Shown here in pieces: positions 4,739 through 27,740 of a DNA stretch of 32,000 nt. Position numbers and translations under genes: made by a program. Source of the DNA: Candidatus Saccharimonadota bacterium (GTDB lineage Bacteria > Patescibacteriota > Gracilibacteria > BD1-5 > UBA6164); NCBI GenBank assembly GCA_004563595.2, contig CP042461.1, positions 30,001 to 62,000 of the forward strand, written 5' to 3'. Within the stretch, counting starts at the first letter, position 1, and each line of letters starts with the position of its first letter. Under the pieces are notes generated by a model that saw only the letters and a list, made by a program, of their open reading frames with translations, was not told where the DNA came from and did not search any database.

Positions 4739-5092
4739 ATGACAAGAATGTTAGCAAAAGCATTAAATAGATTAAGAAGAAAAAATAAAATCAGATCAAA
4801 GATCAATGGTACAGCTGTAAGACCTCGTCTAGCAGTATATAGAAGTAATTCAAATATTTACGCTCAACTTATTGATGATGTTACAGGAAAAACTTTATGT
4901 TCTTCTTCTGACTTAAAAATGAAAAAATCAGGAACAAAAACAGATATGGCAAAAAAAGTTGGTGAAGATATGGCAAAAAAAGTATCTGGACTGAAAATTG
5001 CATCAATCGTTTTTGATAGAGGTTGATTCGCATATCATGGAAGAGTAAAAGCTTTAGCTGATGCTCTCAGAGAGAATTGAGTTACAATTTAA
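4739..5092 (+). CDS. rplR: 50S ribosomal protein L18
   Basis: The track ORF 4739-5026 continues through TGA to ...[27 protein letters not shown], the characteristic L18 C-terminus (FDRGG..[9 protein letters not shown]). Confidence 0.9.
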
Positions 5093-6166: not shown

Positions 6167-7435
6167 ATGATACTTAAAAGTATAAAATCTGTCTTTGAAG
6201 TAAAAGATATCAGAAAAAAAATAATTGCTACACTTGTTTTAATACTTGTATATAAATTATTAGCTGTAATACCAGTTCCTGGAGTTGATACTACTTGACT
6301 TGCTGTCATTATGGAACAACAAAAAGGATTATCTTTTTTTAGTGCTTTAATGTGATGAGGGTTATCAAACTTCTCCATTATTCTTATGTGATTATCACCA
6401 TATATTAATGCAGTAATCATTATTCAACTAGTTGGGGTTATTATTCCAAAAATTTGAGACTTACAAAAAGAATGAGAAGCAGGACAAAGAAAAATAACTA
6501 AAATGACAAGATGGTTAACACTCCCACTTGCATTTGTACAAAGTTACTGAATGATTGTTCTTCTGAATACTTTAGCTGGAGGGTCAATTATTGATATATC
6601 TAATACAAGTACAGTACTTATGGCAATGACAATTATTACTGCTTGAACTCTATTCCTTATGTGGTTAGGTGAAGTAATGACTGAATATGGTATCTGAAAT
6701 GGTATCTCTGTAATTATCACTGCTTGAGTACTTTCATCTGTTCCTGGAGTAATTATGGGGCATATAAGTGCATGAAATTATCCACTCTTTGTTTGATTAT
6801 TACTTGCGACACTTCTTATTATTTACATAATTATTAAGTTTACTGAATGAAATAGAAGAATACCAATTATATATACAAGAACATGAAGAGAAGAAAAATC
6901 ATATTTTCCAATTAGAGTGAACCAAGCTTGAATGATTCCTATCATCTTTGCTGTTTCACTTGTTACATTTCCTTCAATCTTAGGGCAAATACTTTCTAGA
7001 TCTACTGGAGAGACTGCATCTCAAATTGGGAATACACTTTTGACATACTTTGATCTTGGGAATCCAACTTGGATTTTCATCATTGTATATTTCTTACTCG
7101 TACTTGGTTTTGCTTTCTTTTATGTATCTATTACATTTAATACTGATCAAGTTGCTGAGAATATTCAAAAAAGAGGCGGATATATTCCTGGTATTAGACC
7201 TTGAACTGAAACAGCTGAATATTTAGCAAAGGTTTCTGCTCATTTAAATCTCTTCTGAGGGAGTTTTCTAGCATTCATTGCTGTTCTACCATATATCATG
7301 TGAAAGATCATGTGACAATCAATAGATTTCATTATATCAGCAGCATGACTTATCATTATAGTTTCAGTTATACTTGATATTGTGAGAAAGGTTGATTCAG
7401 AAATGAAAATGTTTGATTATAGTAAATTTAAATAA
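6167..7435 (+). CDS. secY: Preprotein translocase subunit SecY
   Basis: MILKSIKSVFEVKDIRKKIIATLVLILVYKLLAVIPVPGVDTTGLAVIMEQQKGLSFFSALMGGGLSNFSIILMGLSPYINAVIIIQL.... The track fragment 6932-7204 is in the same frame. Stop TAA at 7433-7435; 422 aa. Confidence 0.95.
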
Positions 7436-7440
7436 AATAA

Positions 7441-7479
7441 AAATCCTTGATATTACATTGTAATATCAAGGATTTTTTT
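7441..7479 (+). terminator. Rho-independent terminator closing the ribosomal protein/secY operon
   Basis: Perfect 16-bp stem (7441-7456 pairs with 7460-7475), 3-nt loop ATT, followed by a T-run. Lies 6 nt after the secY stop. Confidence 0.85.
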
Positions 7480-7540
7480 ATGTTTTTAAACACGAATATA
7501 AGAATTCCCCAGTTAGAAAGAAAAGAGCCTAAATAAAATA

Positions 7541-7569
7541 TTGACAAATTACACATAATACATATTGTA
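7541..7569 (+). promoter_or_regulatory. Candidate sigma70-type promoter for the 7641 lipoprotein gene
   Basis: Exact TTGACA at 7541-7546, then a weak -10-like hexamer (TATTGT/ATTGTA) after a 16-17 nt spacer. Purine-rich Shine-Dalgarno AGGAAG at 7631-7636 just before ATG 7641. AT-rich background makes false positives likely. Confidence 0.3.
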
Positions 7570-7640
7570 TGTTTGCTAAATTTTTAGTAAATACAAAAAT
7601 CAAATGAAGTTGACTGTGGTAGAACCACAAAGGAAGCCTT

Positions 7641-8780
7641 ATGAATAAAATATCATTAATATTGTTAATGGGAGTAGTGAGTTTATTAGCTGCTTGTAAA
7701 GATACTGAAACAGAGTCCATAGTGATTAATGCTTCAGATATTTCTTTAACTGAAGTAAATGCTACGTGTTATCGTATGCTGGATTGTAATTTTTCTATTA
7801 TAATACCTACTCAGATACCTGCTTTTACACTGAATACTTCTCGTAACGCAACTATAACATTACGCCTTGATGGCGAAGAGGATATTGTATTAAATACTGA
7901 TAATGAAGATCAGGTTACTTTTGAATCTGATTTATCAGGATCAGGAATATTGTTTTTTCAAATTCCTAAATCTGGTGAATTTACATTTACGATTTCTGAT
8001 TATAAAGTTGGAGGTGTAAAACAAGAAGTACAAGAATATAAGGTTGCTGTTTCTGAACTTTATGTGTCTACGTTTGAATATAATGGATGGTTTGAACTTG
8101 AAAACCATAAGCTGATCGATGCAAATTATTTTTCTGTTGAGATGGAGCGTCCAGAATCTACTTTAGCAACGCATTATTATTTGAATAGAAAAGATGTGGA
8201 ATGCTTTGAGGGCTATTATAATAATATTTGGGTAAATCATTATTCTCCATGTTATAATATAGGTGGAGATAATAAAGTTATTGCTGAAATATTTTCGAGT
8301 GAACCTGTAGCTGACTCAGAATTGCTTCTTGTTGATTATGAGGTAGAAAGTGGCTATTTCCATTATGGAATTAGATTGAATTCTGAGATCCCATTTTACA
8401 CTCATCAGAGTGAATATACACTTATTCTTTCTGATATTGTGCTTCAGCCAAAGAAGTTGCTTCCAGTTGGAAATTTTGATATTCGTATATCTTATCATGG
8501 TTATGTTGATGATGAGTGGCAGGACATCATTATCCTTACTGAATCTATTTCTCGAGATATTGCTTCATTAGATGTTATTTCATTAACTGAGCAACTAGAA
8601 GTGGGAGATTCCTATAATAGTAGTACTACAGAAATTAGAGCTACTCATGTTGAATCTGGAAATATTTTTGAATTAGCATTTACTTCTTCGGATGTAACGG
8701 ATACTTATTATCATTTCACGTCACCTTTTGGTGAAGCTGAAAGAAATAAATTAGTATTCCATCGAGTTGAAAATTATTAA
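7641..8780 (+). CDS. Hypothetical lipoprotein, 379 aa, contains no TGA codon
   Basis: Intact ORF under both the standard code and code 25. N-terminus MNKISLILLMGVVSLLAAC has a lipobox L-A-A-C. All 18 Gly (my count) are GGN. 7 of 11 Arg codons are CGN, against almost exclusive AGA in neighbouring native genes. Has its own SD and terminator. No family recognised. Confidence 0.8.
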   Translation: MNKISLILLMGVVSLLAACKDTETESIVINASDISLTEVNATCYRMLDCNFSIIIPTQIPAFTLNTSRNATITLRLDGEEDIVLNTDNEDQVTFESDLSGSGILFFQIPKSGEFTFTISDYKVGGVKQEVQEYKVAVSELYVSTFEYNGWFELENHKLIDANYFSVEMERPESTLATHYYLNRKDVECFEGYYNNIWVNHYSPCYNIGGDNKVIAEIFSSEPVADSELLLVDYEVESGYFHYGIRLNSEIPFYTHQSEYTLILSDIVLQPKKLLPVGNFDIRISYHGYVDDEWQDIIILTESISRDIASLDVISLTEQLEVGDSYNSSTTEIRATHVESGNIFELAFTSSDVTDTYYHFTSPFGEAERNKLVFHRVENY

Positions 8781-8828
8781 GATTATTGCTATTCTCTAGA
8801 ATCGTGCAATAAGTCGTATATAAAACTA

Positions 8829-8857
8829 CCCAAGACCACTTATGGTCGGGGTTTTTT
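8829..8857 (+). terminator. Probable rho-independent terminator of the lipoprotein gene
   Basis: CCC-AA-GACC (8829-8837) pairs with GGTC-GGG (8844-8850), leaving an AA bulge. Loop ACTTAT, then T6 at 8852-8857. Confidence 0.55.
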
Positions 8858-8984
8858 ATTTATAACAATAGTACTCTATAAAAGGGAATACTTTTTTAAG
8901 ATGCGCATCAAGATTAGGTTTCTTTTTAAATCCCTTTAATTATTAGTACCCTTAGGGACTAGTCGTCCTTAAATAAATGAAAAA

Positions 8985-9287
8985 CTATGATTTAAGACAA
9001 TTTATTAAAACTTCTTTAACTTTAGACTTTATTCTAGCTGCTAAGTTTTCATGAAGAGAATACATATTAAGACCACTCAATTGCTCAAGAGCAAGTTGCC
9101 TTGTCTTACATAAATGATCAAGTATAGCCATTTTTTTTCTATCTTCTACTGATAATAACTCTTGATTATTCGGGAGTAGAGCTATATGATTACTACTTTT
9201 AAAATAACTCATAGAATTATTAATTTCTTCTGGGGAAAATTGTTCAGAAGTGGTTGTTTGTACTCATTTTCAAATTCAAAAAGACAT
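8985..9287 (-). CDS. Hypothetical protein (~100 aa)
   Basis: The track ORF 8985-9212(-) extends upstream through three TGA=Gly codons to ATG at 9287 (MSFGIGKGVQTTTSEQFSPEEINNSMSYFKSS...). Lies 25 nt downstream of def on the same strand. Start is uncertain (9212 is possible). No family recognised. Confidence 0.5.
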
Positions 9288-9312
9288 AGTAATAGTTTTA
9301 AAAATAATTTTT

Positions 9313-9780
9313 TTACACTAACTTATCCACAAACAATACACCATTTATATGATCGATTTCATGTTGGACTATCCTTGAGCTGACTCATTCTAAGAGAAGG
9401 ACTCTATCTTTTCCTTTTCAGTCGAGATATTTTAGTTTGATTGTATGGTATCTTTCTACATTCCCTTTCATTCATGGAATAGATAAACACCCCTCTTCTT
9501 CTTTATCCATATTATCCGAATGAGTAAGTATTTCAGGATTTATCATCATGATAGTTTTGAAGTCTTCGTCATCCCGGTCTTTTAATAGACTCACAACGAT
9601 GAGTCGCTTATTTACTCATACTTGTGGAGCAGCAAGTCATACGCCATTATTGTCTGGATTTTTAACGTATTTAATCATCTGATTTCCAAGTTTTTCTATT
9701 TTTTTTATTTCAGATTGTTTTACTTGGTCGGAAACTTTTCTGAGTACTTGATTGTTTGTTCAAGTTTCAATATGTAACAT
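9313..9780 (-). CDS. def: Peptide deformylase
   Basis: Minus-strand translation with TGA=Gly: MLHIETGTNNQVLRKVSDQV...NNGVGLAAPQVGVNKRLIVV...EEGCLSIPGMKGNVERY...SRIVQHEIDHINGVLFVDKLV*. All three PDF motifs are present (G.G.AAPQ, EGCLS, QHE.DH). Length 468 nt, in frame. Confidence 0.9.
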
Positions 9781-12522: not shown

Positions 12523-13782
12523 GTGTTAGACCTAAAAATAATCAGAGAAAATCCTGATGTTGTAAAAGATAATATCAAAAAAAGAAATCTAAAATTACAT
12601 TTAGATGATTTTTTAAGTCTTGATAAAGAGAAGCTAGGGTTTATCGTAAAGGTTGATGAATTGAGAGCAATCAGAAACAAAGTAAGTAAAGAAATTCCAT
12701 CTCTTCCGAATGAAGAGAAACAAGGAAAAATTATAGAAATGAAACAACTTTGAGAAGATTTGAAAATATTAGAAGAATCTCAAAAAGAAAATCTAGAGAA
12801 ATGGAACGCTTTATATTATCAAATTCCAAATGTATTAGATGATACAGCAGCAATTTGAGATACTGATGAAGATAATGTTCTTGAATCTAAATTTCTAGAA
12901 CCCACTTCATTTGATTTTGAAGCTCAGCCTCACTATGAAATTTGAGAAAAAAAATGATGGATAGATGTTGAAAAAGGATCAGAGGTTTCATGAGCACGTT
13001 TTTGGTATTTAAAGTGAGATTTAGTGTTATTACAATTTGCCTTAATTAATTATGCTATGTCTGTTTTGACGTCAAAATGATTTAATCCTATTCTTCCTCC
13101 AGTGCTTGTAAGAGAAAAAGCAATGTTTGGGACAGGTTTTTTTCCTGCAGGAGAGGATGGTTTATATAGGGTAAACCCTGATGAAGATGATCTTCATTTA
13201 GTAGGGACATCAGAAGTTCCAGTAACGAGTTATCACAGTGATGAGACTTTAGATTTAGATCAGCCAAAGATGTATGCCGCATATAGCTCATGTTTTAGAA
13301 GAGAAGCATGATCTGCATGAAAAGATACGAGAGGTATTCTTAGAGGACATCAATTTGATAAAATTGAAATGGTGACTTTTTGTAAAGCAGATGAATCACA
13401 AAAAATGCATGATTTTATGATAGGAGTAGAAGAAGAAATTTGGCAAGGACTTGAAATTCCTTATCAAAAAGTAAATGTATGTTCATGAGACCTTTGAAAT
13501 CCTGCAATGAAAAAATTTGACCTTGAGGCATGGATGCCAGGGCAAAAAAAATATAGAGAAGTAACCTCTTGTTCAAATGTGTGAGAGTATCAAACAAGAA
13601 GGTTATGAATCAAATACAAAGATGAAAATGGAAAATCTCAATTTGCACACACTCTTAATGGAACTGTTATTGCAATGAGTAGATGTATGATTGCGATTAT
13701 CGAAAATTATCAAACAACAGAAGGAGACGTGAGAGTTCCAGACGTATTAATACCATTTATGGGAGGAAAAAAAGTAATATAA
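12523..13782 (+). CDS. serS: Seryl-tRNA synthetase
   Basis: GTG start; [23 protein letters not shown]...[27 protein letters not shown]...[39 protein letters not shown].... Class II SerS motifs present. Track fragments 12523-12753 and 13102-13311 are in the same frame. Stop TAA at 13780-13782. Confidence 0.9.
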
Positions 13783-13806: not shown

Positions 13807-14478
13807 ATGAAAAAAAGAATTAAAATTATATTTATTGGATTATTTATAATTGCTTTTATAGGGCTACTTTATTTGATGTTTTCATTAGATAACTCTGAAG
13901 AAAACATTGATATTATTAAACCTGTTGATTTATCTAAAGGTACGTTTATACCTAATTTACCGCAACCAAATGAGGAAACAAGGATAAAGTTTATTTATGA
14001 TGGTGATTTATCAGGTGTAATATGGGGTGTTAAAGAACAACCTAAGGACTCAAGCATTGTTTTAAAAGTGTCTGAAGATAAAAAAAATATAAGTTTCGTT
14101 CCTAAAAAACAAGGACGTTACATATTAGAAGCGAGAGATCAAGAGAGTAATTCTAAAAGAGAGTTTTCTATAGCTGTATATAAGAGTTTATTAATTGATA
14201 AAAATAAAGTAAATAATAACGGAATAGTGCAAAATCAAAGATGGATTGAATCATCTGCCCTTCTTGAAGATGAAATTATTACCCTTCTTGAATCTAATGC
14301 TTATAGTGAATTGAATTATATTGGATATAAAAAAGATATATTTGGAGGGTTTCTTATTGAATTTGACGAGACAAACCCTGAAGCTTTCAAGCAGATTGAA
14401 TTGTTAAAATTAGATCAAAATATAGATGATGTAAAAAGTAGAAGAGATTGGAATTATTTTAAATATTCCATAAATTAA
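13807..14478 (+). CDS. Hypothetical N-terminally membrane-anchored or secreted protein, 223 aa, no TGA codon
   Basis: Intact in the standard-code track (13798-14478); ATG 13807 preferred (MKKRIKIIFIGLFIIAFIGLLYLMFSL...). All 11 Gly (my count) are GGN. Sits directly upstream of the giant ORF. No family recognised. Confidence 0.7.
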   Translation: MKKRIKIIFIGLFIIAFIGLLYLMFSLDNSEENIDIIKPVDLSKGTFIPNLPQPNEETRIKFIYDGDLSGVIWGVKEQPKDSSIVLKVSEDKKNISFVPKKQGRYILEARDQESNSKREFSIAVYKSLLIDKNKVNNNGIVQNQRWIESSALLEDEIITLLESNAYSELNYIGYKKDIFGGFLIEFDETNPEAFKQIELLKLDQNIDDVKSRRDWNYFKYSIN

Positions 14479-14625: not shown

Positions 14626-17600
14626 ATGAGCTACTCAAAGATCCAAAAATTTTTATCAAGTCTTGTGCTTTTTAGTATCCTTTTTTCTATCACTGTTAGA
14701 GTACCTTTTTATAACTTTAGTGCTTTTGCTGGAAGTTCAGATTTTTATGATATAGTCTCAGTAATTGTTGAAGAGGAGATATATGATGATATAAAAATGG
14801 AAGTTAATAGATATGCAGCAGATATAGAGGGAGTATTAGATAATACAAAAGTAATTATTCTTCCTACTCCAAAAGATACTGACGTTTTTAATATTGCATC
14901 TGTAAATGAGGCTTTATATTTCGAGTGATATAAATGAGTAGAGAAAACGAACTTTGAATCAAAATTAGTTTGAACAGTGATTGTCGGAGATATAGGATTG
15001 CCCGTTGTATATGATGGTAATAATTCTTCAAAAACTATTCTTCCATTTGTTGATTTTGAAGATAAAGCATATATCTATAATCATTCAACGAAAAAATACG
15101 AAAAAAACTCAGGGAATGCAAATGGTTTACAAGCTGAAATATGGCATGGCCTCATTTCTCCAAATTTTTGAGATGACAAAAAAAATCTATCGTGACTCAA
15201 GGATTACTTCGATAAGAATCATGATTATTATGAATGAACAGGAAATTTTGACTGAGCAAATGGTCTTATAAATTGAAATATATGAGAAGGGAATCCCGTA
15301 GGATATGATCCAAATGTATTTTACTTTGATGCATTTAGGGAGTCAAAAGCCCTTAATTATAATAGTTTTGTTGGTTATAAATGATATCTAGAAAATAAAG
15401 AAGATATTGTCTACAATAGATTTAGTAATAGCTTAGCAGAAAAACTAAAAGACCAAGTTTTATGAAACTCAAACGATCAAATATGAGATTTACTTCAATC
15501 TGTTGCTCCTGATTTAGATGCGGGCTCACTTTCTCAATGACCAGACCTATCAAATACACCAGATATTCAATCAAGGCATGTGACTCAAAAAATAGCAAAG
15601 AAATTTATTGAAATTTTTGCGGGAGGAGCTTTGTGAGACTTTAGAAAAAATGTCCATAATGCATGACGTTATAATTGAATATGAGCAGAGGTAAATATGG
15701 ATATGATTCCATATTTTGTTACGGTACTCGATTCTGTAAATGATGAAGTTATAAAAGATGTTACCAGTGAGCTGGAAAATAAAATTGATGATTTGGTGAA
15801 AACTGAATTACAAGAAGATATATATGTTCCAACTATTTTAGAAGAATCAAATGCATATATTGATAGGTATAGAACATCAAATAATGGAAGTAGTAGGGAT
15901 GAGAATCTTTCGTATATAGACTATCAAACAAATATTCTGTACTGAATCCAGGCATCAAATATAACTGATGCGCTTCAATGTAGTATTTATAGAGGAGCTA
16001 CATATAACTGATGAACCCTTGTTGAAGCAAATAGGTGATTAAATATATCTCTTGTTACAGGTGATGTGGCACTCTTGGAAAATGAATCTATCAGTTGTCT
16101 ACAGGCTATTGAATCATGAGATTCGCTCAATTGATATTGGGGAAAAAATACCTGATTAAATTTAGATAGTGCAGCAGCTTGAACTTCAGGTTTACAATTA
16201 AAAGAGCATGATTTGAATGGTTCTATTCAACCTCTTTTTGACCTCGTTGGTTCAAGAGCAGTAGATAATACGGATAATAACCCATCGTACCTTGATTGTT
16301 TTGATAATAACTTCTTTGTTTCACGTGAGTATACTTTGAGTGGTGATAACACAAGTAGCAGACAAGATAGATTTACTACACTTACCTATGGATTACCAAT
16401 ATCCGGTAACTCGGCTGTAAATTGGAGCTGTAAAACAGTATCAAAGAAGTATGACTATACAAGGAAATATAATGATTTAAATGCAGAATGAAAATGTAGC
16501 GATGAAATATGTGTTGATTGAAAAAATAAAATATTTTTTAAAAAAATACCATCTTATATAGAACATAAATCCCCAACTGTAGATGAATTAAAAATTGAAA
16601 TCGAGAGTGGTATTACTCCGTCACTTCCAATTGATAGAGATAGATATATTGATTTTCAATGAAAAGGGGGGAATTATAAAAAAATAAATTACCCATATTT
16701 ATTCAGATTAACAGTTGAAGAAGGAGATGAACTCAGTACTAAAAATATTGAAAAAGCATTGACTAAATACCTTGATTCTAAAAAGAGTGAATTATGAGAT
16801 TTTGATCTGGTGAATTTTTTAAAATCTAAAGAAGACCAGTCAATAAACATCTGATGAGAAACAAAAACATTGAGTTATTACGATACATTGATTTTTGCGA
16901 TTTATTGGAATAATTTAAATACAGTCTCTTCAAAGTATAAATTTGTTTTTGAAAATTATCTTTCAGATCAACTTTGATCAGATGATGATAATTTTTATTT
17001 AGCAAAAAATAAAAAACAATATGAACTTGCGTATATTTGAGCTCCATGAGATGCACAAAATATGTATGTAAAGTTAGATCCAGAAGAAAAAGCAGAGAAT
17101 CCATATAGCGAAGTATTGAGTAAAAACAGCACTTTATCTACCCAGTTGCTTGGCTCAAATATTTGAATTTCAGAAAACCTAGGGAATGAATGAGTATTTC
17201 AATGTGCTCCACCTGAATGAGTTCCTATTTTTGAATGGGTGCCAGCTCTTGTATGTTGGATTTGAAACATGCTTCCTCCAACGATTTCTATATCTGATTG
17301 AGTGTGTGGACCCAGTTTATTGTCAGCTGATGAAAGACAAGAAATATTTGAGTGTTCTGGAGATGTAAATAAAAATGGTATTAATGATTGTATTGAAAAT
17401 AAATTACAATGAGGAAGTTTAGAACTAAAAACATCTTCAGATAAATACTACTATAACAAATCATGATCCCTCACTTCTCAGATCAAAGATAAAAACTGAA
17501 AAGTAGTCAAATTAGATAGTGCCAGTGAAGTTCATTTCGAACTCGTAAAACTAGAAATAAAAAAAGATAAAAATAAAGAACTCACTTCATCAAACACAGA

Positions 17601-20600
17601 AGTTATCTATGATACACAAAATAAAAATAATTTTGATCTTACAAAAGAATACATTTATTTTAAAAATGGAAAAGCAAAAGTAGCTTTATGAGAAGTAAAT
17701 TATGCTTTTGTTTCAAAAAATGAAGACGTGAATGCTTATTTTAAAGCTTCTGTTGAAACTTATGATAACCAAGAAAAGAAGGAAATATTTTTAGAGTCAG
17801 AGGAAATACAGATTTCAGTAAGAGGTGAAAGGCTCTTTACTTCAAGTTATAAAGTAGAGCAAGATAACTGATGAGTACATATAAATGTTTGAGAAAACTC
17901 TGTAAAAGTGAGTGATAAAATAAATATCTTTCTTGTCGATAAAGATAAACAAGATGTGAATGACATTTCAAAAAAAATTAGTTTTTCTTCAGTGTCATCA
18001 GAAAAAATGATACTTTCTTTAGAAAATATTTCTGATCTAGGAAAAACAACTCCTATTTCTTACCCAATAGCATTACAAATATCTCGAGATGGAGTGACTC
18101 TAGATACTTTCACTGTTCATGAGTCTGAAATGTGAGAGTTTAAGAATTTAGCTTCATTAGAAAAATCTTGAACCTATACTTTTGAGATACAAGATAATGA
18201 TTGATTTATATCAACACAAGATATAAATTTGATAGCAGAAGAACCAAGCGATCTACAAATACAGCTATGATCTACTCTTATTGAGGCAGGTTGAAATATT
18301 ACTACAAATATAATAAGTATATTAGATAAGTTCTGAAACCCTGTTATATGAGAGTTTTTAGACTTAGATATTGATATAGATGGTGCTTGATTGCTCTTTG
18401 AAGAAAATGAAAAAGATAATATATCATTACAAGTTTTAGAGTGATATAAAGTTTTTAGGCTACAGTCAACAGGTTCAGAATGAACAAATACTATCAAAGT
18501 AAATGTATGAGATGGATTTGGAAAAACACTTGCGAGTGCTCAGTCTGAAATCCAAGTATTAGATAAGATACAAACAGTTTTAAAACCTTTAGATTCAAAT
18601 ATTAGAGTAGGTGGGAACAGCTACAAATATGAGCTGAGTTTAAGGGACTCTAGGTGAAAAATTCTTTCAAATTTTAATTCAAGAGTGTATCTTGGAATAC
18701 AAAAAAACTATGGTTCAGCGATATCTCCATACGTTGAAATAAAAGGTGGAAGAGCTGAATTAGAATTTAAAACAGCAACTATAGCATGAGAAGTACCATT
18801 TGAGTTTCAAATAGAATGATTATGAAGAATTATTACAAAAAATATAACTATTCTTCCGGATGCAGCAATTAAAATTGATATGTCACTATCAAAGTCAAAA
18901 ATTGAGGCTTCAAAAGATGAATTTTCTCTTTTGAAAGTGGAACTAAAAGATAGATACTGAAATATTGTTCGTACTGATAACACTACAAACACAAAATTAG
19001 AGATTTTAGATCAATACAAAAACATTATTAGTTGAGATATATTATCTCAAACAGTACAAGCATGAGTATCTACATATAAGATTTTTTGAACAGAAAATCC
19101 ATGAACAGCCTATTTCAAAATTTCTACAAACCCATGACTTGAAAATAACGGCTTTGTTATAAGTGATGGTGCCTGAGAAATTACAGTGCAGTGAGTTTGA
19201 GAAAATATGGGAAAAATAGAGACATTCTATTTCTGGAATGCTCAAAGAATACAAGATACTAGATATAATGCGTTATATACTACTTTGTTGGGTGCTCCAT
19301 ATTGAGATGTGACTCAAGAAGATTACCTTGCATGAAGTCTATTGTTTCAAAAAGACAATAGGTCCCTTGCTGTTAGTTCATTATTAAATAGCCCATATTG
19401 ATATAGTGATATTATTGATATTAACCCTGAAGGATGAATAAAATTTGTTTATAATGATTCAGATGTTACTCAAGATATTGAATCAAGCATATGATTTGAT
19501 GAGAATAATTTGTTTATTAACCTATTCAATGCCTCATTATCTACATATTTATGAAAAGTTTATTTTAATTTTCCAAGTGATACAAACTTACAAGTTTGTG
19601 AAGGAACAAGCTTGTCTATTTGTGAAATAAGTTCAGAAAAAACAAGTATTTCTCTTCAGAGTAACGCCCAGGATTATTCTGCATATTTAGATTGAGATCT
19701 TTTAATACTACAGGACAAGTTTTGAAAAAAAATATTAGATATCGATTCAAGTGGACATATTAATAAATATTGAATTGTTGATTTTGTCTTGAGGAGTACA
19801 AATAATGGAAAATATCTTGATCTTGATATTCTATCATGAGATACAAATATAGGTTCTCTATGATTTCATTTTGTTGATGCAAATATAAATGTCTCAAGAG
19901 ATCAAAATAAATTTGAGAATAAAATTAAAAACCTTAAAAATAGTATATTAGTTTTATTATCTACGAATTCATACCAAACAAGAGATTCTTATAATTGAGA
20001 TCAATCAAGCAAAATCATCTATTACAATGATCCATTTTCTACAAAATATAGTTTAAATAACTTTACTAAAAACAATTCATTTTGATACGAAAACTTTGCA
20101 AAAAAATGATGACTATGATGGTCAGAAGAAAATAAAACTTTGCTGAACTTTGCAGCATGAAAGAGCGTTTGAGAATCTATAAAAGATTACTCAAGTTTTT
20201 CAGTTGTAAACTTATGAGACCCCGTACTTCAACTAAAAAAATCACCAAAAAAATTACCAAAAACTATAAAGGATAGGAAGTTTGATAGGACAATATGAAA
20301 CCAACTTACCTGAGATAAAGATATTCTTTCATATCAAGTATTTGATTATAATGCAGATGAAATTGATGACATTTTATTAATCAAAAATAATAATTACTTC
20401 AAGCTTTTAGAAAATACTCTCAATGATCAGAAATTTTTAGATACCTGAAATCTTGCTTATATATCTGATCTTGGAAATAAGGATTTAGTAAAAACTTGAG
20501 ATTTCACATGAGATAATTATGAAGATATCTTCTTTGTTAATAAAAATGGAGATCCCTTCTTATTAAATAATCAGGAAAAAGATTTTGTTCGAATTTCATT

Positions 20601-23600
20601 GAAAGATCAGTTTCAGTTAGAATGAAAGATTATTAGAGTGGAGAAATTTGATATGGATAATGATAAAATAACAGACCTTGTTATTTTAGATGACTCATGA
20701 GAGATCCATATATTTTATTGAACTTTAGGTTCTTGAAATCCAGAATTTAAAAAACTCCTTGTATCCGATTCTTATTGAATTAAATTAAGCTCTGAGATCA
20801 GAAGTGATAATGGTTTTATCTATTTTGATGGATTATCATCAGTTGAAAGTTCAGATGATTATAATGCAGACTTATTAAAAGATAATGAAGAATACCTTCG
20901 TGAATTACAAAAGAATATTAATTCTAATAGTCTTCCTCAAAATACGTCTAGTCAAGAGATAAATGAATGACTTGTGGATAAACTTATTTATGTGACTGCA
21001 TCATACTGAACATCAGATCAAGAAGACATCAGTACAGAGAGTGTCCTTTGAAATATAAATCTGACATCATCAGCTGAAACGAGTGATTCACTTGCTCTTA
21101 CAAATACTACCCTCAGTAATTTTATTAATTCAAATGATAGCTATGTAAGTCTTCCTGCTAGGCTTCCAATTACAAAACAAACATCGTTTATAAAAAGTGA
21201 TTATTCATCACTTGTCTGATTAGATGTGGAGAAGAAGTTTATAGATAGAAATGAAGGATTCTTAAAGTCTGATGATGTTGTGGATGTGGAGATCGTTTTA
21301 AAAAATACTTCAAATCAAATTGCAAACAATGTTGTATATTTAGAAAAACTAGATCAAATTTTTACTTTGAATACAGAAACTATTCGTGTATCTTCGGATG
21401 CAAATATAGCTTTTTGAGTCCCTTGATATGATTTTGTAATTGATAATTTTTCACTTGTTCCGGGTTGAACGATTACTATAAATTATGAAACAAAAACAAA
21501 AGCTTTGAAATACGGATATCTGAAAGTATGACTATTTGAAAAGGGTGAATTATGAGATGATTTTTATGGTGATATTATTATAAAAAAGAATAATCAAAAC
21601 TGTTCTCAGCCACAAACAATTTTAAAATCGCAAACCAAAAGAACATATACACAATGAGTAAAAGAAGTTTCATGTGATGAAAATAAAAATGCTCTTCCAG
21701 ATGAGATAGAAAAGAATACAGAAGATTCTGACAATAATGGTATACCAGATTATATAGATAATTTAACGGATCCAAACAACATTGACGCTCAAGCTGAGTA
21801 TGCAAAGAATGCACTTGCAGATGTAAACAAATGAGCAGTATCAGAATTTGATGATAGTCCGAATATTGTATGAGACTTATCAGAAATGAATGCAAATATA
21901 GATGAAACTCTGGACAAAGTTGATAATATACTCCAAGGATTTAGTTGTGGTTTTTGATGATGAGGGTGTATAGCAACACCTTTGAACTGGGCTCCACTAG
22001 CACCAGGTTGAGATCCAACATTATTTTGAGTTCCAGTATGAGACGGTTTACAAGTAGGAGAATGACTCCCGATTTTTTCAGCACTTACATGGTTCTGAAT
22101 ATGACCACTCTGTTTACCAATTGCAGTATGGCCTCCAAGTCCATTGTGACCAGGATGTTGAGCAACTCTATGAGCATGAGGGTATTTATGAACTATGAAT
22201 CCAACAAATTTTTTCAGACTGTTTATAACACCAACATTAACTTGATGAATGTGAACGGCAATGTGTTTTGGAGCTCCACCAATGCTTGCTTGATATGCAA
22301 ATATGCCATGACTGAGTCCTCTTTTACCTGGATGAAACTGTATTGTAACAGCTGCACCCCTAGGAACATGTAGTGACGATGGATCAGATTGATATGTTGC
22401 ATGAATTTGAGAATCAGATATTACAACAGGAAGCTTTGGATTAATCAACTGAAATTGTTCTCCTCAAGTATCAAAAAGCCAAACACTTGATTCGGAATTT
22501 GTACAAGATTATTTACAGTACAAAACAACAGGCTATAAATCAGATACGTTATTTGATAGATATAAAGAGTCTTTTACAAAAATTTCTGAAAATACAAATG
22601 GGAGAGGATGATTTTCTTCTGAACCCTTGTTAAGTATAAATTGAGAATGAAATGGAGACCAAGTTGATATAGCTATTGACTTTTCAGCAGGACAAGATTG
22701 AGACTTTTCTGATGTTTTACAAATACAGCAAACAAGAATTTCCCCTTTTCCAGATTTCTTGATGTGATGGGTAACGAGGCAAATTGAAGAGATTGTCACA
22801 AAATTAACAGATTTCCCAACTGTGTTTGTTATTCTTCCAGATTTACAATGAGTATTAGATTCAGGAATATTAGATGGGTGAGATAATAAAGCTGAAAATA
22901 GAGAGGATGCATTTGTTGTTAATAAAAATATAGCAAATATTACATGAACTGGTTGAATAAATACAGTAAATTCTTGAATAAAAGAAGCATATAATTATAT
23001 GTCTAATATTCCTCTGATTCAAATTGAACAAGAAGTTATTAATATAAGTGTTCCTTATCCAGAAGAGGAAAGTATAAATAGGACTCTGAAGTCTTGGGGG
23101 AATACAGTAGATAACTGGACAGATGAATTAGAAAGAGCAAAGTGAGCATGGACTTTATGAGCTTTCTGTAGCTGAACATGAGCAGAAAAATCAAGATGTG
23201 AACAAGAAAATGCTATCTGAGAAAAAATTCTTATCGATACTCAAGGTTTAATATCTTCTTTGGAAAGAAATATAGACGTACTGAATGATTATAAAACTTT
23301 CCCAGAAAAACTTGGAGAATTAGTAAATAAAAAACAAGATTATTTAGAACAAATTTTATGTAATGTTGAATCTATTTCATGAATTTTAGGTGGCCGGATT
23401 TGAAAAAATGGAAAAAGATTTAAAGCATGGGTTGAAGCATACGTACTTATAAAAGCAATTTTAAAATCTTGGCAAGTATTGATAGATGTTTTTATTGATT
23501 ATGAGGCAGAATGTCACGAATGTAAAAATGAGAGAGGTGACCTGATGACTTATATATGGAAACTCATTAGTGTAATTATTCCAAAAATACCAGTTATTCA

Positions 23601-26600
23601 ATTTCCTAAATGGCCAGACGTTATTATTGATTTACATAATATCCGTGCATCATTAAGTATTACCCTCCCAGAGTTTCAGTTTACAACCAGGCCAATATTA
23701 TTACCGACACTTCCTGATTTAATTTTACCAGATGTTCCAACGGTGAATATTACTCTTCCAGAGCTTCCCGTGCTCCCAACTTTGGAAATACCTGAGCTTC
23801 CGGATCTCCCAACTCTTCCAACGGTTGAGCTTCCAAACTTACCACCAGCACCTACTCTTCCAAAAATGTTTGCTTCTTTAGAATGAGTATTAGATATTCT
23901 CAAGTTAGTCACAAAAGCAATGTGTATTTTGAAAACAAGCCCATTTGTTCCAGAGTGGAGAGCTTGAGATCAAATCGCATTTTTGACAGAAAGGCAATGA
24001 TATCTCCCAACAGATTTTATAGATATTAATCTTCCTCAATTTTCATTTCCATTTGTTGATGCGATAAAAATTACCAGCTATGTAAATTTAGAATTTGAAA
24101 CAGATTTTATATTAGAACTGGCAAGGCAAGTTGCTATGCCTATTAATTGAGTTTGAAACAATTTCACACAGATGCTTGATATTGAGGTTTCAGATTTGGA
24201 TTTTTCAATTCTTCCATCAAGTGTTGATATAAATATCTGAAGTGAAGGAATAGAGGGAGATATTTCTCAAAATTCACAAAATAAAAAAGCTGCAATATTT
24301 GCAACTCTTGTTGTAAAGTGAATATGAGAACTATATTCATATCTTGAAACAAATAAAAATGAAACAGTTTCTAATGATGAGTTTAAACAATTGATTTTTA
24401 CAGCTTTATCATCAAAGAGTATAAGTTCAAATCCAAAGTTGGATAATTTGAGATCAGTATGGAAAGAAGTTGAAAGCATGACATATTCAAAAGAAGATAA
24501 GATCATTGAAGCACTTGAGAAAAATAACTTTAAAAAATTTGAATTATTAAAAGAAATACTCTCAACTGAAATACAAAAAACGAAAGAACAGGAGAAAAAC
24601 CTTCAAAAATTTATTGAGCCATCTTATATTACTCAAGTAGCATTTGAGCAATCAAGTGATGTAAAATATTACAATGAGAAGCTCAGAAAATATAATGAAA
24701 AATTTATCACTGCGGCAACGTCTCTTCAAGATGGAAATGGAAATGAACAGAGAAAAGAGTTGAAGCAAGAATGAGATAGGCTTCTCTCAAATATAAAGAC
24801 ACCACTCAGTCAATATGCGGAGTGATTTAATAATAATTCATTGTCAGCAGTAACGAGCACCGTACCAACAACAAGTTCTTCTACAAATAGTTGTAGTGCT
24901 CAGTCACAATCTGCATATCATTATAATTATAAAGGATTGTATGTTCTTGAGGATAATATCAGTTATAGACTCTTTGATTATTTGGATGAATTAGATGGAA
25001 ACGAAGTAAATACACTTATAGATTTTGATAATGATTCTGATGATGATCTTATCTATATGACAAATGGTCAGATTTTTATAAAAGAAAATTTAAATAATTC
25101 TCCAATAAAAAGAAAAACTTTATGATGACCTATAGTTATTGAGAGTGACGATAATAAATTTTATGATACAACTCTGAGTGAAGAACCAATCTTTTATGAA
25201 TCTGTAAATAACTTTGAGGAAGTATCAGTAGATAATAGCTCAATTAACATGAGATTTTCAAAAGCTGCTTATAACCACGGGAAAAACTATAGAGTGGAAT
25301 TTTATGATATCACTGATAAGTTTCTTCATATTTGAGATGATAGCTATTTTCCAAAAAAGAAAAAAAAGTATCTTATAGATGCATTTGCTAATAGAGATGA
25401 AATTACATATGTAAAAGAGAATGAGACCTATAAGACGAGTAAGAATTTAGCATATATAAAGAATATTTGAATCCTAAAAGGGATAAAATTACAGACAAAG
25501 AATTTAATTAATATCAAAGATAGCTTAGAGGAAGGAAAAATAGTGAATATATCTCCTCTTACGAAACTATATGCGTGAAGGTCTTCATTTGTACTAAAAT
25601 ATTTAGAAGAATGATCTCAAGAGCTTCAATGACTCGTAGTAGCAAAACATCAAAATATTGAGATGAAACAAGCTATTAAAGTAATATGAATTACTTGAGA
25701 TGCATATATAAAAGGAACAACAGATATATTTTTAGAATGAGAAGAAATAAGATGATATTTACATAAACCTCTTTTTGCTTGAACGTGAATAAAACATGAT
25801 TCATCTATTCATTTATCAGAGAAACCATATGTTGATATCATGTACTATGATGATACAGAAGTTTGATTAGACTTTAATGAAATAAATGATTATAAAATAT
25901 ATGACTTATGATCAAGTAATCAAGATTACTTGATCAACGTTTCAAGAGAGAATGACTACTATTACTCTAAGATAAGAACTTTTAAAGAATGAGTTTTTGG
26001 AACCTATTCAAAGCCAATACTTCTTTCTCCACAAAAAGAAGCGGATTCAAGCTCCCCAGAACTTTCTCTGTGAACTGTAATAAGAGTGCCTGTATATCAA
26101 AAAAAGATAATTGATATTACAGAAAATATATATGAGGATTCATGAATAAGAAATATAAATGAAGTACGTATCGACATGGACTTGAGTGTTGATAGTGATT
26201 GAGATGGGAATCCAAAAAATGATGCAGATAATATGACAAGCGATACAATAAATGTGGCACAAAGTCTTACAAGTATACAGATTGAATTCGGTGCATTTGA
26301 GACATTATTTAAAAGAAATATTTGAATTACTCTTGTAGATAATAATAACAATGCTTCATATACTGAAGCTCCGTTAGAAGTATATGCTCCTAATCCTGAG
26401 ATACAGTTATACAATAATAATATCATACAATGAAGCTTGGATGAAGAGCTTACAAATGAACCGGTTCATTTGTATAGATATAGATGATGAACTATTTCAA
26501 AACTTGAAAATATAGATGGTGAGGATATTTCATTAACGAATAATGGGATATACGATTTTGATATGAACATTGATTCAAAAAATTTACTTCTTACTCAGAA

Positions 26601-27111
26601 TGATCTAATTATCGCTGAAATAGATGAAAATACCTGAAAAATAGATATCAAAAATCCTCTTTCTCAAATAGAAGTACTTTCATCTAATGATATAAATAAT
26701 GATTCGGCGTATCCAAAAATGACCCTTCAGAAAGGTTGAGAAGATGTATATTATCAATATTTACAATTCTCTTCAGACACGAGTATACAAGTTGTGAGTA
26801 ACTTTGATGATTTAGATAATGAATGAATGTATGTACAATTTACGAATGGTACAGATTTTAATTATTATCAGATCCCTGAATGATCAGTGTACGCTCCATG
26901 ATCTCTGAGTATCTATAGAATAACAAATCCAAATAAAGATCCGTTATTTACTTTCTTCAAAGATGGTAGAATAAATACATGGAATGAATTCTATAGACTA
27001 GAATATTCTACATACGGGGACTATATAGTATTGAAGCTCATAGATAAAAACTTTAATAAAGAAGTTGCAAAGGTATTATTTAAAGTAGATTGAGAGTATG
27101 TAATGAAATAA
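14626..27111 (+). CDS. Giant secreted/cell-surface protein, 4161 aa (putative adhesin or host-interaction protein)
   Basis: With TGA=Gly, one uninterrupted frame runs from ATG 14626 to TAA 27109-27111, with no in-frame TAA/TAG in my manual read. Nine supplied ORF fragments are all in this frame (starts 14626, 14977, 15697, 16213, 17908, 21226, 23479, 24391, 24841). N-terminal hydrophobic signal/anchor MSYSKIQKFLSSLVLFSILFSITV. Internal Ig-like repeats, FG-GAP-like and Ca-binding motifs, a hydrophobic G/P/W/C module and an LP repeat. Terminator immediately downstream. Confidence 0.8.
23761..23859 (+). repeat. Three imperfect in-frame 33-nt tandem repeats (11-aa Leu-Pro units) inside the giant ORF
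   Basis: Units 23761-23793, 23794-23826 and 23827-23859 each begin GAGCTTCC. They encode ELPVLPTLEIP / ELPDLPTLPTV / ELPNLPPAPTL. Units 1 and 2 share 21/33 nt by my alignment. Degenerate LP-rich sequence extends upstream to about 23640. Confidence 0.8.
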
Positions 27112-27144: not shown

Positions 27145-27239
27145 TAAAATTGTTTTGCTTAATGTCAAAAATTTTATAGAATACGCTTGCTTCGTTAAGA
27201 GGTATACTTATAACTTGGTAAAAAGGAGAATTACCAAAT

Positions 27240-27695
27240 ATGAACAATAAGATCATATTGGCTATTACTATTAGTGTTTTATTTATTTCAAATTTACAGG
27301 CAGAGGCATTAGAGAAAAAGTCATTTGAGTTGGAGTGGTATTATGCTCCACAGCAAGTAAAAGCAATACAGAGTAGGATATTTTTCCATGATGAACAAAT
27401 AAATACTACAAGTACTACTATTTCTATTGAAAATAAATCGGATGAAACATTAGTTGGAGTTGCATATCGATTACTTCTTAAAAACCCGGATACTCAACCA
27501 TTGAGTGCTTCCTGTAATGATAATGAACCACGGAATATAGTTATTGATAAAAAAACTGGAGATAGTTACTTTGAACTTCCTATTGAAGGTTTACAAGTTG
27601 GTCATATTGTGATTTGCCAACTTAATTTTATAAGATCTACTATTCCTCCTTTCTATACGGTTCTTGTAGATGAGGGCGAGTTAATTGAGCCTTAG
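27240..27695 (+). CDS. Hypothetical secreted protein, 151 aa, no TGA codon
   Basis: Intact in the standard-code track. Signal peptide MNNKIILAITISVLFISNLQA/EA. Strong SD AGGAG at 27224-27228. Possible promoter TTGCTT (27187-27192), 16 nt, TATAAC (27209-27214). All 5 Gly are GGN. Has its own perfect terminator. No family recognised. Confidence 0.75.
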   Translation: MNNKIILAITISVLFISNLQAEALEKKSFELEWYYAPQQVKAIQSRIFFHDEQINTTSTTISIENKSDETLVGVAYRLLLKNPDTQPLSASCNDNEPRNIVIDKKTGDSYFELPIEGLQVGHIVICQLNFIRSTIPPFYTVLVDEGELIEP

Positions 27696-27704
27696 TTAAA
27701 ATAA

Positions 27705-27740
27705 AAACAGGTTGCTAGAAAGCAACCTGTTTATTTTTTG
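27705..27740. terminator. Bidirectional rho-independent terminator between convergent genes
   Basis: Perfect 10-bp stem ACAGGTTGCT (27707-27716) / AGCAACCTGT (27721-27730), loop AGAA. An A-run lies upstream and a T-run downstream, so it reads as a terminator on both strands. Sits between the stops at 27695 (+) and 27747 (-). Confidence 0.8.

Follow-up and report, generated by a model that had tools for sequence, protein, structure and literature searches.

The window analysed here, a stretch of 32,000 nucleotides (contig CP042461.1, positions 30,001 to 62,000 of the forward strand), has a guanine-plus-cytosine (GC) content of 29%, and its genes are sensible only when TGA is read as a sense codon (genetic code 25, TGA = Gly). 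Under this code, the window holds the ribosomal protein (r-protein) operon from rpsC to rplO, followed by secY, def, ruvB, a PRK-family kinase gene, femAB, serS and a giant gene for a protein of 4161 amino acids (aa), after which come further genes, several of them coding for membrane or secreted proteins. The SecY protein shares 73-86% identity with proteins named Candidatus Gracilibacteria, and the window is very probably part of the code-25 Gracilibacterium genome BD02T64, which is closed, read-curated, 1.343 Mb long with 28.87% GC, and comes from a Gulf of Mexico oil-degradation experiment (PMC6851277). Between secY and def lies the subject of this report, a cassette encoding a predicted lipoprotein. 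All of its glycine codons are GGN and its start codon is preceded by a Shine-Dalgarno (SD) sequence, whereas about half of the glycine codons in native genes are TGA and native genes lack an SD.

A self-contained cassette encodes a predicted lipoprotein

The cassette consists of a single open reading frame (ORF) that lies between a promoter and an intrinsic terminator of its own, both of which are consensus-level matches (Table 1). The promoter is a match to the consensus only, at 10 of 12 positions, and similar sites precede native genes; sigma-70-like promoters and intrinsic terminators likewise serve native genes of the window. The segment between promoter and early coding region (7570-7670) folds with a z score of -2.67. 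On the left, the terminator of secY marks the edge of the inserted segment, and an analogous hairpin lies within the 44-bp secY-def spacer of the closest relative, L002 (SecY 86% identical). A reading of this DNA made from the sequence alone (the sequence-only reading) had described the exact TTGACA box and both terminators, and all three were found again here, as was the ORF itself with its TAA stop.

Table 1 Features of the cassette, of its insertion site and of other TGA-free genes, in window coordinates
Feature	Position	Strand	Details
Bidirectional secY terminator	7439..7477		Hairpin formed by a perfect 18-bp palindrome, with A and T runs on its flanks
Segment absent from closest relative	7446..9305		1.86 kb; cassette and 100-aa minus-strand gene
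Sigma-70-like promoter	7541..7568	+	TTGACA (7541-7546), 16 nt, TATTGT (7563-7568)
Small hairpin	7616..7628	+	GTGGT-AGA-ACCAC, directly 5′ of the SD, in structured 5′ untranslated region (UTR)
SD AGGAAG	7631..7636	+	4 nt before ATG; -5.8 kcal/mol
Lipoprotein precursor ORF	7641..8780	+	379 codons and TAA stop
Predicted signal peptide with lipobox	7641..7697	+	Lipobox codons 7686-7697; Cys19 at 7695-7697
Cassette intrinsic terminator	8829..8857	+	CCC-AA-GACCA CTTA TGGTC-GGG, then G and T6
100-aa gene	8985..9287	-	25 nt downstream of def; absent from all relatives
Third TGA-free accessory gene	13807..14478	+	223 aa, N-terminal membrane anchor; starts 24 nt after serS
Second cassette	27155..27739	+	Between terminator of giant gene and convergent 891-aa gene

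The N-terminus of the encoded protein, MNK-ISLILLMGVVSLL, has a basic n-region and a hydrophobic h-region, as in a textbook lipoprotein signal peptide. The LAAC lipobox named in the sequence-only reading corresponds to L16-A17-A18-C19 and fits the pattern [LVI][ASTVI][GAS]C, with the cysteine at the cleavage site. In its charged N-terminus, hydrophobic core, lipobox and family-invariant cysteine, the protein resembles bacterial lipoproteins processed by Lgt and LspA. Unlike known lipoproteins, its mature part had no family match in sequence searches of Pfam, NCBIfam, PHROG or PDB; in PHROGs there was only a tail-tube match that was not significant (E = 0.27). An AlphaFold2 model built from a three-sequence alignment is all-beta with a predicted local distance difference test (pLDDT) score of 51, and a Foldseek comparison with PDB gave only generic beta-sandwich matches with template modelling (TM) scores of 0.1-0.2, which were treated as uninformative. 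No Rfam match was found in 7400-9350, and a literature search on lgt, lspA and lipidation returned nothing for Gracilibacteria. A family of 26-nt direct repeats in the ORF had suggested tandem domain repeats, but comparisons of the protein segments were at chance level (z < 0.2) and the idea was therefore dropped.

Glycine codons, arginine codons and the SD set the cassette apart from native genes

Native codon usage was taken from 22 native genes of the window, with the giant gene left out unless stated. TGA makes up 216 of their 433 glycine codons (407 of 744 once the giant gene is counted), and rplP alone has 7 TGA and 6 GGN codons, which agrees with the share given in the sequence-only reading. 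The cassette ORF has 18 GGN codons (10 GGA, 5 GGT and 3 GGC) and no TGA, for which the probability under native usage is 4e-6. Seven of its 11 arginine codons are CGN (4 CGT, 1 CGC, 2 CGA and no CGG) and four are AGA, whereas CGN accounts for 9 of 260 native arginine codons, or 19 of 349 with the giant gene included; across this range of 3.5-5.4% the neighbours use AGA, as had been noted, and at 5.4% the probability of at least 7 in 11 is 4e-7. The strength of the SD was expressed as the duplex energy (kcal/mol) with a generic anti-SD; no fetched locus contained an rRNA. All 23 native genes scored at -3.5 kcal/mol or weaker as compared with -5.8 kcal/mol for the AGGAAG of the cassette, and the sole other exception in the window precedes a second TGA-free gene at 27240.

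In other respects the cassette looks native. Its GC content is 0.318 and its GC content at third codon positions (GC3) is 0.177, both native-like, and leucine CTN codons are not enriched. With glycine and arginine excluded, its log-likelihood per codon under native usage is -0.866, within the range for native genes (-0.67 to -1.01) and close to the values for secY (-0.906) and for segments of 380 codons taken from the giant gene (-0.81 to -0.92). Since the remaining codon usage, GC3, promoters and terminators are all native-like, the anomaly is narrow: no TGA, few AGA and an SD.

In place of whole-genome statistics, we used the window together with 80 related Gracilibacteria secY loci, in which genes were called under code 25. 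In those loci where TGA makes up at least 40% of glycine codons, only 3 of the 369 genes with at least 15 glycine codons are TGA-free, and the cassette ORF is one of them. The outlier status that the sequence-only reading had proposed to test is thus confirmed, and the observation is real and highly non-random.

Both CGA and CGG have been predicted to encode tryptophan in Absconditabacteria, and CGG possibly does so in some Gracilibacteria (PMC8629427). Reassignment of CGA, which would deprive the cassette of its code neutrality, was rejected for the window, because the only native CGA in a conserved protein, located in def, aligns with arginine in orthologues. The only native CGG in a conserved protein is codon 69 of def (9574-9576, minus strand), which aligns with arginine in 20 orthologues and with tryptophan in 4. 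Judging from these alignments, CGA most likely encodes arginine in this genome and, as the cassette contains no CGG, it would therefore read identically under both codes.

The cassette was inserted into the spacer between secY and def

Homology to the closest relative in a blastn comparison stops at window position 7445 and resumes at 9306. In L002, L003 and L004, which are three independent marine assemblies, secY is followed by a 44-bp spacer with one bidirectional terminator, then by def on the opposite strand and by ruvB, the PRK-family kinase gene, femAB, serS and the giant gene. The same tail-to-tail arrangement, with def directly after secY, is found in 27 related loci including the closest relative. 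The cassette is absent from this site in all 88 other fetched loci, the closest relative among them, and no relative of the cassette is encoded in the 80 secY loci. The cassette was thus inserted into the tail-to-tail spacer between secY and def. The sequence-only reading had placed it where the r-protein operon normally continues, which does not hold for this lineage: the operon ends at secY, and therefore the insertion interrupted no operon and displaced nothing. The comparison of 44 bp with 1.86 kb does bear out the insertion that had been proposed in that reading.

The inserted segment also carries the 100-aa minus-strand gene, which has no known relatives. Three of its four glycine codons are TGA, all three within the first eight codons. 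Under the standard code, only a 75-aa TGA-free ORF (8985-9212) stays open in this gene. On the far side of the cassette, 23 of the 30 nucleotides at 8975-9004 match the last 30 nucleotides of secY (7401-7430).

Two homologues share the anomaly and occur in recoded genomes

A word-indexed search of 5.8 billion proteins returned only the cassette protein itself. An exhaustive phmmer search of 1.84 billion representative proteins returned two homologues only, P0122 (334 aa, 30% identity, E = 5e-15) and P0123 (402 aa, 27% identity, E = 1.4e-6). Their signal peptides are laid out as in the cassette protein, with the lipoboxes LSGC and LSAC, and the lipobox cysteine (Cys19 of the cassette protein) and the LL preceding it are invariant in all three members. 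Conserved cysteine residues and a YLNxxD...C...CYNxxGxNKV motif are common to the family. No further members were found by a profile search of 5.8 billion proteins or by two scans of JGI metagenomes, no relative of the cassette family, P0122 or P0123 was found in three scans of IMG/VR, and tblastn against GenBank phages (50,697 records) gave no match for the family.

Both homologues are encoded on short low-GC contigs, and the other gene on each contig uses in-frame TGA. One neighbour is a fragment of a class II aminoacyl-tRNA synthetase gene (D/K/N-type, probably lysyl-) with 8 TGA codons within a continuous Pfam match, and the other is a gene for a YgaP-like membrane protein with 4 TGA codons. 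The genes of the homologues are themselves TGA-free (0 of 18 and 0 of 24 glycine codons), and CGN makes up 3 of 11 and 3 of 4 of their arginine codons beside neighbours that use AGA only. They are preceded by the SD sequences AAAGGAGAA and AGAGGG, and each is followed by a terminator; upstream of the gene for P0122 (locus L007), TTGACA-16-TATAAA occupies a position equivalent to that of the cassette promoter. In total, the three members contain 0 TGA in 60 glycine codons and 13 CGN in 26 arginine codons. Each of them has a different genomic context, one following secY, one following a class II tRNA synthetase gene and one lying beside a YgaP-like gene, and the family therefore looks mobile.

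The search for a donor led only to these two proteins, both on code-25 contigs. Because they lie in recoded genomes and are themselves TGA-free, weight shifts toward a gene, or a pool of genes, whose readability under both codes is maintained. The sequence-only reading had offered this as one possibility beside a recent acquisition from a standard-code host bacterium or phage, of which neither the donor nor a standard-code homologue was found among the 1.84 billion representative proteins, IMG/VR, GenBank phages and JGI contigs.

Glycine codon choice turns over quickly

Of the conserved glycine sites that are GGN in the closest relative, 46% are TGA in the window, and of those that are TGA in the closest relative, 35% are GGN in the window. 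Glycine codon choice is thus close to randomised over this divergence. Similarly, superoxide dismutase (SOD) orthologues that are 77-85% identical contain 1, 6, 4, 7 and 4 TGA codons, and HU orthologues contain 0 of 10 and 2 of 8. For a gene residing neutrally since the split from the closest relative, the chance of 0 TGA in 18 glycine codons is about 1.5e-5. As glycine codons are scrambled even between closest relatives, the 0 of 60 in the family is not inertia. At 27-30% identity, such fast turnover leaves two options, which are that each member arrived recently from a TGA-free reservoir or that TGA is selected against. The insertion of the cassette can accordingly be called recent only if the gene evolves neutrally.

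Depending on which of the 80 lineages is considered, TGA supplies between 4% and 80% of glycine codons, and CGN between 0% and 96% of arginine codons. The TGA share falls as GC content rises among Gracilibacteria (L010-L089 and the window). At nearly equal GC content, the window (about 53%) and its closest relative (24%) are about two-fold apart in TGA share.

The cassette is one member of a recurrent class in TGA-rich Gracilibacteria

In loci where TGA makes up at least 40% of glycine codons, about 1% of genes are TGA-free (10 of 783 genes with at least 5 glycine codons, and 5 of 599 genes with at least 10, two of these in the window). SD sites at -7 kcal/mol or stronger have a frequency of 1.1%, and properly placed AAGGAG is found almost entirely before TGA-free genes. 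When an SD at a cut-off of -6 kcal/mol was tabulated against the TGA-free state for genes with at least 5 glycine codons (4/3/6/770), the odds ratio was 171 (P = 5e-7), which is conservative since the cassette, at -5.8 kcal/mol, falls just outside the cut-off. A terminator-like hairpin lies downstream of each member of this class, a promoter-like site can be recognised by eye in most, and signal peptides are predicted in most and Pfam domains in none. Most class members thus encode secreted proteins without known relatives, and the cassette is one member of this recurrent class.

A second cassette lies downstream of the giant gene. It has a promoter-like site recognised by eye (TTGCTT-16-TAGAAT) and an SD, AAGGAGA (27223-27229), placed in the loop of a 7-bp hairpin (27215-27237, TTGGTAA/TTACCAA). 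Its ORF (27240-27695) encodes a 151-aa protein with a signal peptide, has no TGA among 5 glycine codons and CGN, including one CGG, at 2 of 4 arginine codons, and ends before a strong bidirectional terminator (27703-27739). No homologue of this protein was found in the 88 loci, and two scans of IMG/VR gave no relative of it or of a class member from locus L074. The third TGA-free accessory gene of the window has no TGA among 11 glycine codons (P = 5e-4), and the closest relative lacks it at the corresponding place, between serS and the giant gene.

Locus L074 contains two TGA-free, SD-led genes for secreted proteins (12746-13375 and 18187-19748, with 0 of 15 and 0 of 18 TGA). One of them adjoins a SOD gene with 1 TGA in 12 glycine codons, where SOD orthologues elsewhere have 4-7. 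The arrangement resembles a small cluster of genes that arrived recently or are TGA-poor.

Acquisition from a TGA-free, SD-using gene pool is the preferred origin

The explanation that we prefer, to which we would give about an even chance, is that the cassette originated in a TGA-free, SD-using gene pool and is a recently inserted, self-contained accessory lipoprotein cassette. It would be transcribed from its own sigma-70-type promoter, giving a moderately structured 5′ UTR of about 65 nt, and translation would be initiated with the help of its SD. The product would be exported by Sec and lipidated at Cys19 by Lgt and LspA, yielding a beta-rich protein of about 360 residues anchored on the cell surface. 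There it might bind or otherwise interact with a partner cell, a role that we suggest with low confidence because the mature domain matched no family. Both the SD and the lack of TGA, and for the family also the CGN codons, would reflect the source pool, for which code-11-compatible phages, mobile DNA and standard-code neighbours taken up as DNA are candidates. Arrival would have been recent relative to the fast turnover between GGN and TGA in this lineage, since under such turnover a neutral long-term resident would not stay TGA-free.

A TGA-free gene with an SD is what recent inward transfer is expected to look like. The 'genetic firewall' of a TGA = Gly cell leaks in one direction, in that standard-code genes ending in TAA or TAG can be translated in it unchanged. 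For the SD and the lack of TGA, ordinary standard-code bacteria would be the simplest source. The case differs from a simple one-off inward transfer in that the only homologues sit in recoded genomes and are equally TGA-free.

The architecture also recalls the morons of lambdoid phages, which are autonomous single-gene islets with their own promoter and factor-independent terminator and often encode lipoproteins or secreted proteins. Like a moron, the cassette is one ORF with its own promoter and terminator between unrelated genes, has atypical codon usage for glycine and arginine and encodes a predicted lipoprotein. Unlike a moron, it lies outside any prophage (its neighbours are secY, def, ruvB and r-protein genes), its overall base composition is not atypical, and superinfection exclusion or a similar function cannot be assigned to it.

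Among documented TGA-free pools linked to Gracilibacteria, code-11-compatible phages come nearest. In-frame TGA is absent from 34 of 38 predicted Gracilibacteria phages, for which selection for a host range spanning both codes, rather than recency, has been proposed as the cause (Liu et al. 2023, mBio, PMC10746230). The cassette shares with such phages of Gracilibacteria and Absconditabacteria the lack of in-frame TGA, a stop codon valid in both codes and a code-25 host. It differs from them as a single chromosomal gene between housekeeping genes, with no phage hallmark genes nearby and no match in IMG/VR or GenBank phages.

Several observations weigh against acquisition from such a pool. No donor emerged, the standard-code organisms, viral contigs and phage genomes searched yielded no homologue, and the three family members known all come from TGA-recoded genomes; a standard-code donor leaves the absence of homologues outside recoded genomes (15 billion proteins) unexplained. 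Codon families beyond glycine and arginine, as well as GC3, match native genes, so that a donor would need nearly the same composition. Integrated Gracilibacteria prophages are reported to be TGA-rich (PMC10746230). The class is not uniform, since the 223-aa gene after serS is TGA-free without an SD and with native-type AGA usage. No integrase or transposase ORF was found in 7440-9320, nor were there convincing flanking repeats, short repeats being at chance level. The echo of the end of secY, which could be a relic of the insertion event, exceeds 2000 shuffles (maximum 22) and 11 control regions (maximum 20), but it was found post hoc, and beyond these nucleotides the similarity ceases.

Selection inside the Gracilibacteria is an unlikely but serious alternative

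The family may instead be held TGA-free, SD-led and AGA-poor by selection inside the Gracilibacteria, an explanation that we consider unlikely. Translation would then be independent of tRNA-Gly(UCA), partly of tRNA-Arg(UCU), and of SD-less initiation, which would make the family a class of secreted proteins that is fail-safe or under special regulation. That all three members, at their low mutual identity, combine the TGA-free state, an SD and 50% CGN beside TGA- and AGA-using neighbours argues for this explanation, as do the native look of all codons other than those for glycine and arginine and the fact that the family is seen nowhere outside code-25 contexts. Because turnover is fast, the TGA-free state must be either actively kept or constantly renewed. 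Absence of the cassette from close relatives and syntenic sites and its family's three contexts point to mobility rather than to stable inheritance. To our knowledge, no mechanism ties SD use to TGA avoidance. Furthermore, other secreted proteins of the window are TGA-rich (191, 27 and 18 TGA), CGN enrichment is absent from other class members, and the family has only three members.

Transfer within the phylum appears improbable to us, somewhat more so than selection. In this case, the donor would be a TGA-poor, CGN-rich Gracilibacterium, and the odd codons would mirror its lineage. The broad spread of TGA and CGN shares among the 80 lineages allows for such donors, and homologues known only from code-25 genomes would be explained. 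Codon usage of the cassette fits lineages with GC 0.33-0.35, TGA 0.23-0.37 and CGN 0.2-0.5 slightly better than its own, such that it ranks its own genome 12th, where the controls secY and serS rank their own genome 1st. Even at the best-fitting TGA shares, however, 0 of 18 has P < 0.01, and SD sites are mostly absent from the lineages with these shares. It becomes plausible (8-40%) only at TGA shares of 5-13%, and the 0 of 60 of the family then has a probability of about 2e-4 to 0.05. An SD of -5 kcal/mol or stronger precedes 11% of genes even in low-TGA lineages, yet it precedes all three family members, and the native-like GC3 of the cassette is unlike that of a donor with 35-45% GC.

Two further explanations involve a partner organism. 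It is very unlikely, in our judgement, that the cassette belongs to a dedicated code-neutral, SD-led class of secreted proteins and lipoproteins that is kept translatable by a standard-code, SD-dependent system through expression in, or exchange with, a partner or host. Still more doubtful is an effector-like cassette built for expression in, or shuttling through, a standard-code partner of the presumed episymbiont. A perfect -35 box, SD, TAA stop, lipobox and intrinsic terminator, together with avoidance of the recoded codon and partly of AGA, would suit such a use, and the class is enriched in secreted proteins. The published genome has been linked to a co-occurring Colwellia population (PMC6851277). 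However, GGA is the dominant glycine codon of the cassette and its overall codon usage matches a Gracilibacterium, such promoters and terminators also serve native genes, and none of the standard-code genomes covered by the 1.84 billion representatives encodes a homologue. We also know of no evidence that Candidate Phyla Radiation (CPR) bacteria deliver DNA or RNA to hosts.

A standard-code fragment wrongly joined by assembly or contamination, which the sequence-only reading had also listed, might account for the codon anomaly itself and for the intergenic position next to hairpins, but is effectively excluded because a separate Logan assembly matches 18,780 bases across the locus at 100% identity (18.8 kb, with the gene on four contigs), the source genome is closed and read-curated, GC, GC3 and codons other than those for glycine and arginine are native-like, and on two further, independent contigs the homologues are likewise found beside genes that use TGA.

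It is often said that alternative genetic codes hinder the flow of genes. The locus is a concrete case, in a closed genome, of a TGA = Gly, SD-less bacterium that carries rare TGA-avoiding, SD-bearing genes, and it is the pattern of the class, rather than the single gene, that deserves attention. If inward transfer is the cause, the pattern would provide a simple sequence signature of recent acquisitions in recoded bacteria and would point to a hidden pool of TGA-free genes. If selection is the cause, as hinted by the three TGA-free members, no other class of chromosomal genes would have been known before to be held code-neutral, and this one could mark surface proteins where uncultured episymbionts meet their hosts. 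Should expression in, or exchange with, a partner keep the class code-neutral, the codon pattern would mark host-interaction genes of episymbionts across a genetic-code boundary. The combination of no TGA, an SD and a signal peptide can be screened for across all genomes of Gracilibacteria and Absconditabacteria.

Other genes of the window

The first-ATG call for rpsE overlaps rplR by 32 nt (5061-5092) and gives a protein of 175 aa, as compared with 157-159 aa for the S5 proteins of the closest relatives (L002, L005 and L006), so the true start probably lies further downstream. The giant gene (14626-27111) begins with an N-terminal signal-like sequence, and its 191 TGA codons make up 61% of its glycine codons. 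In the closest relative, a 4236-aa counterpart of this gene follows serS.

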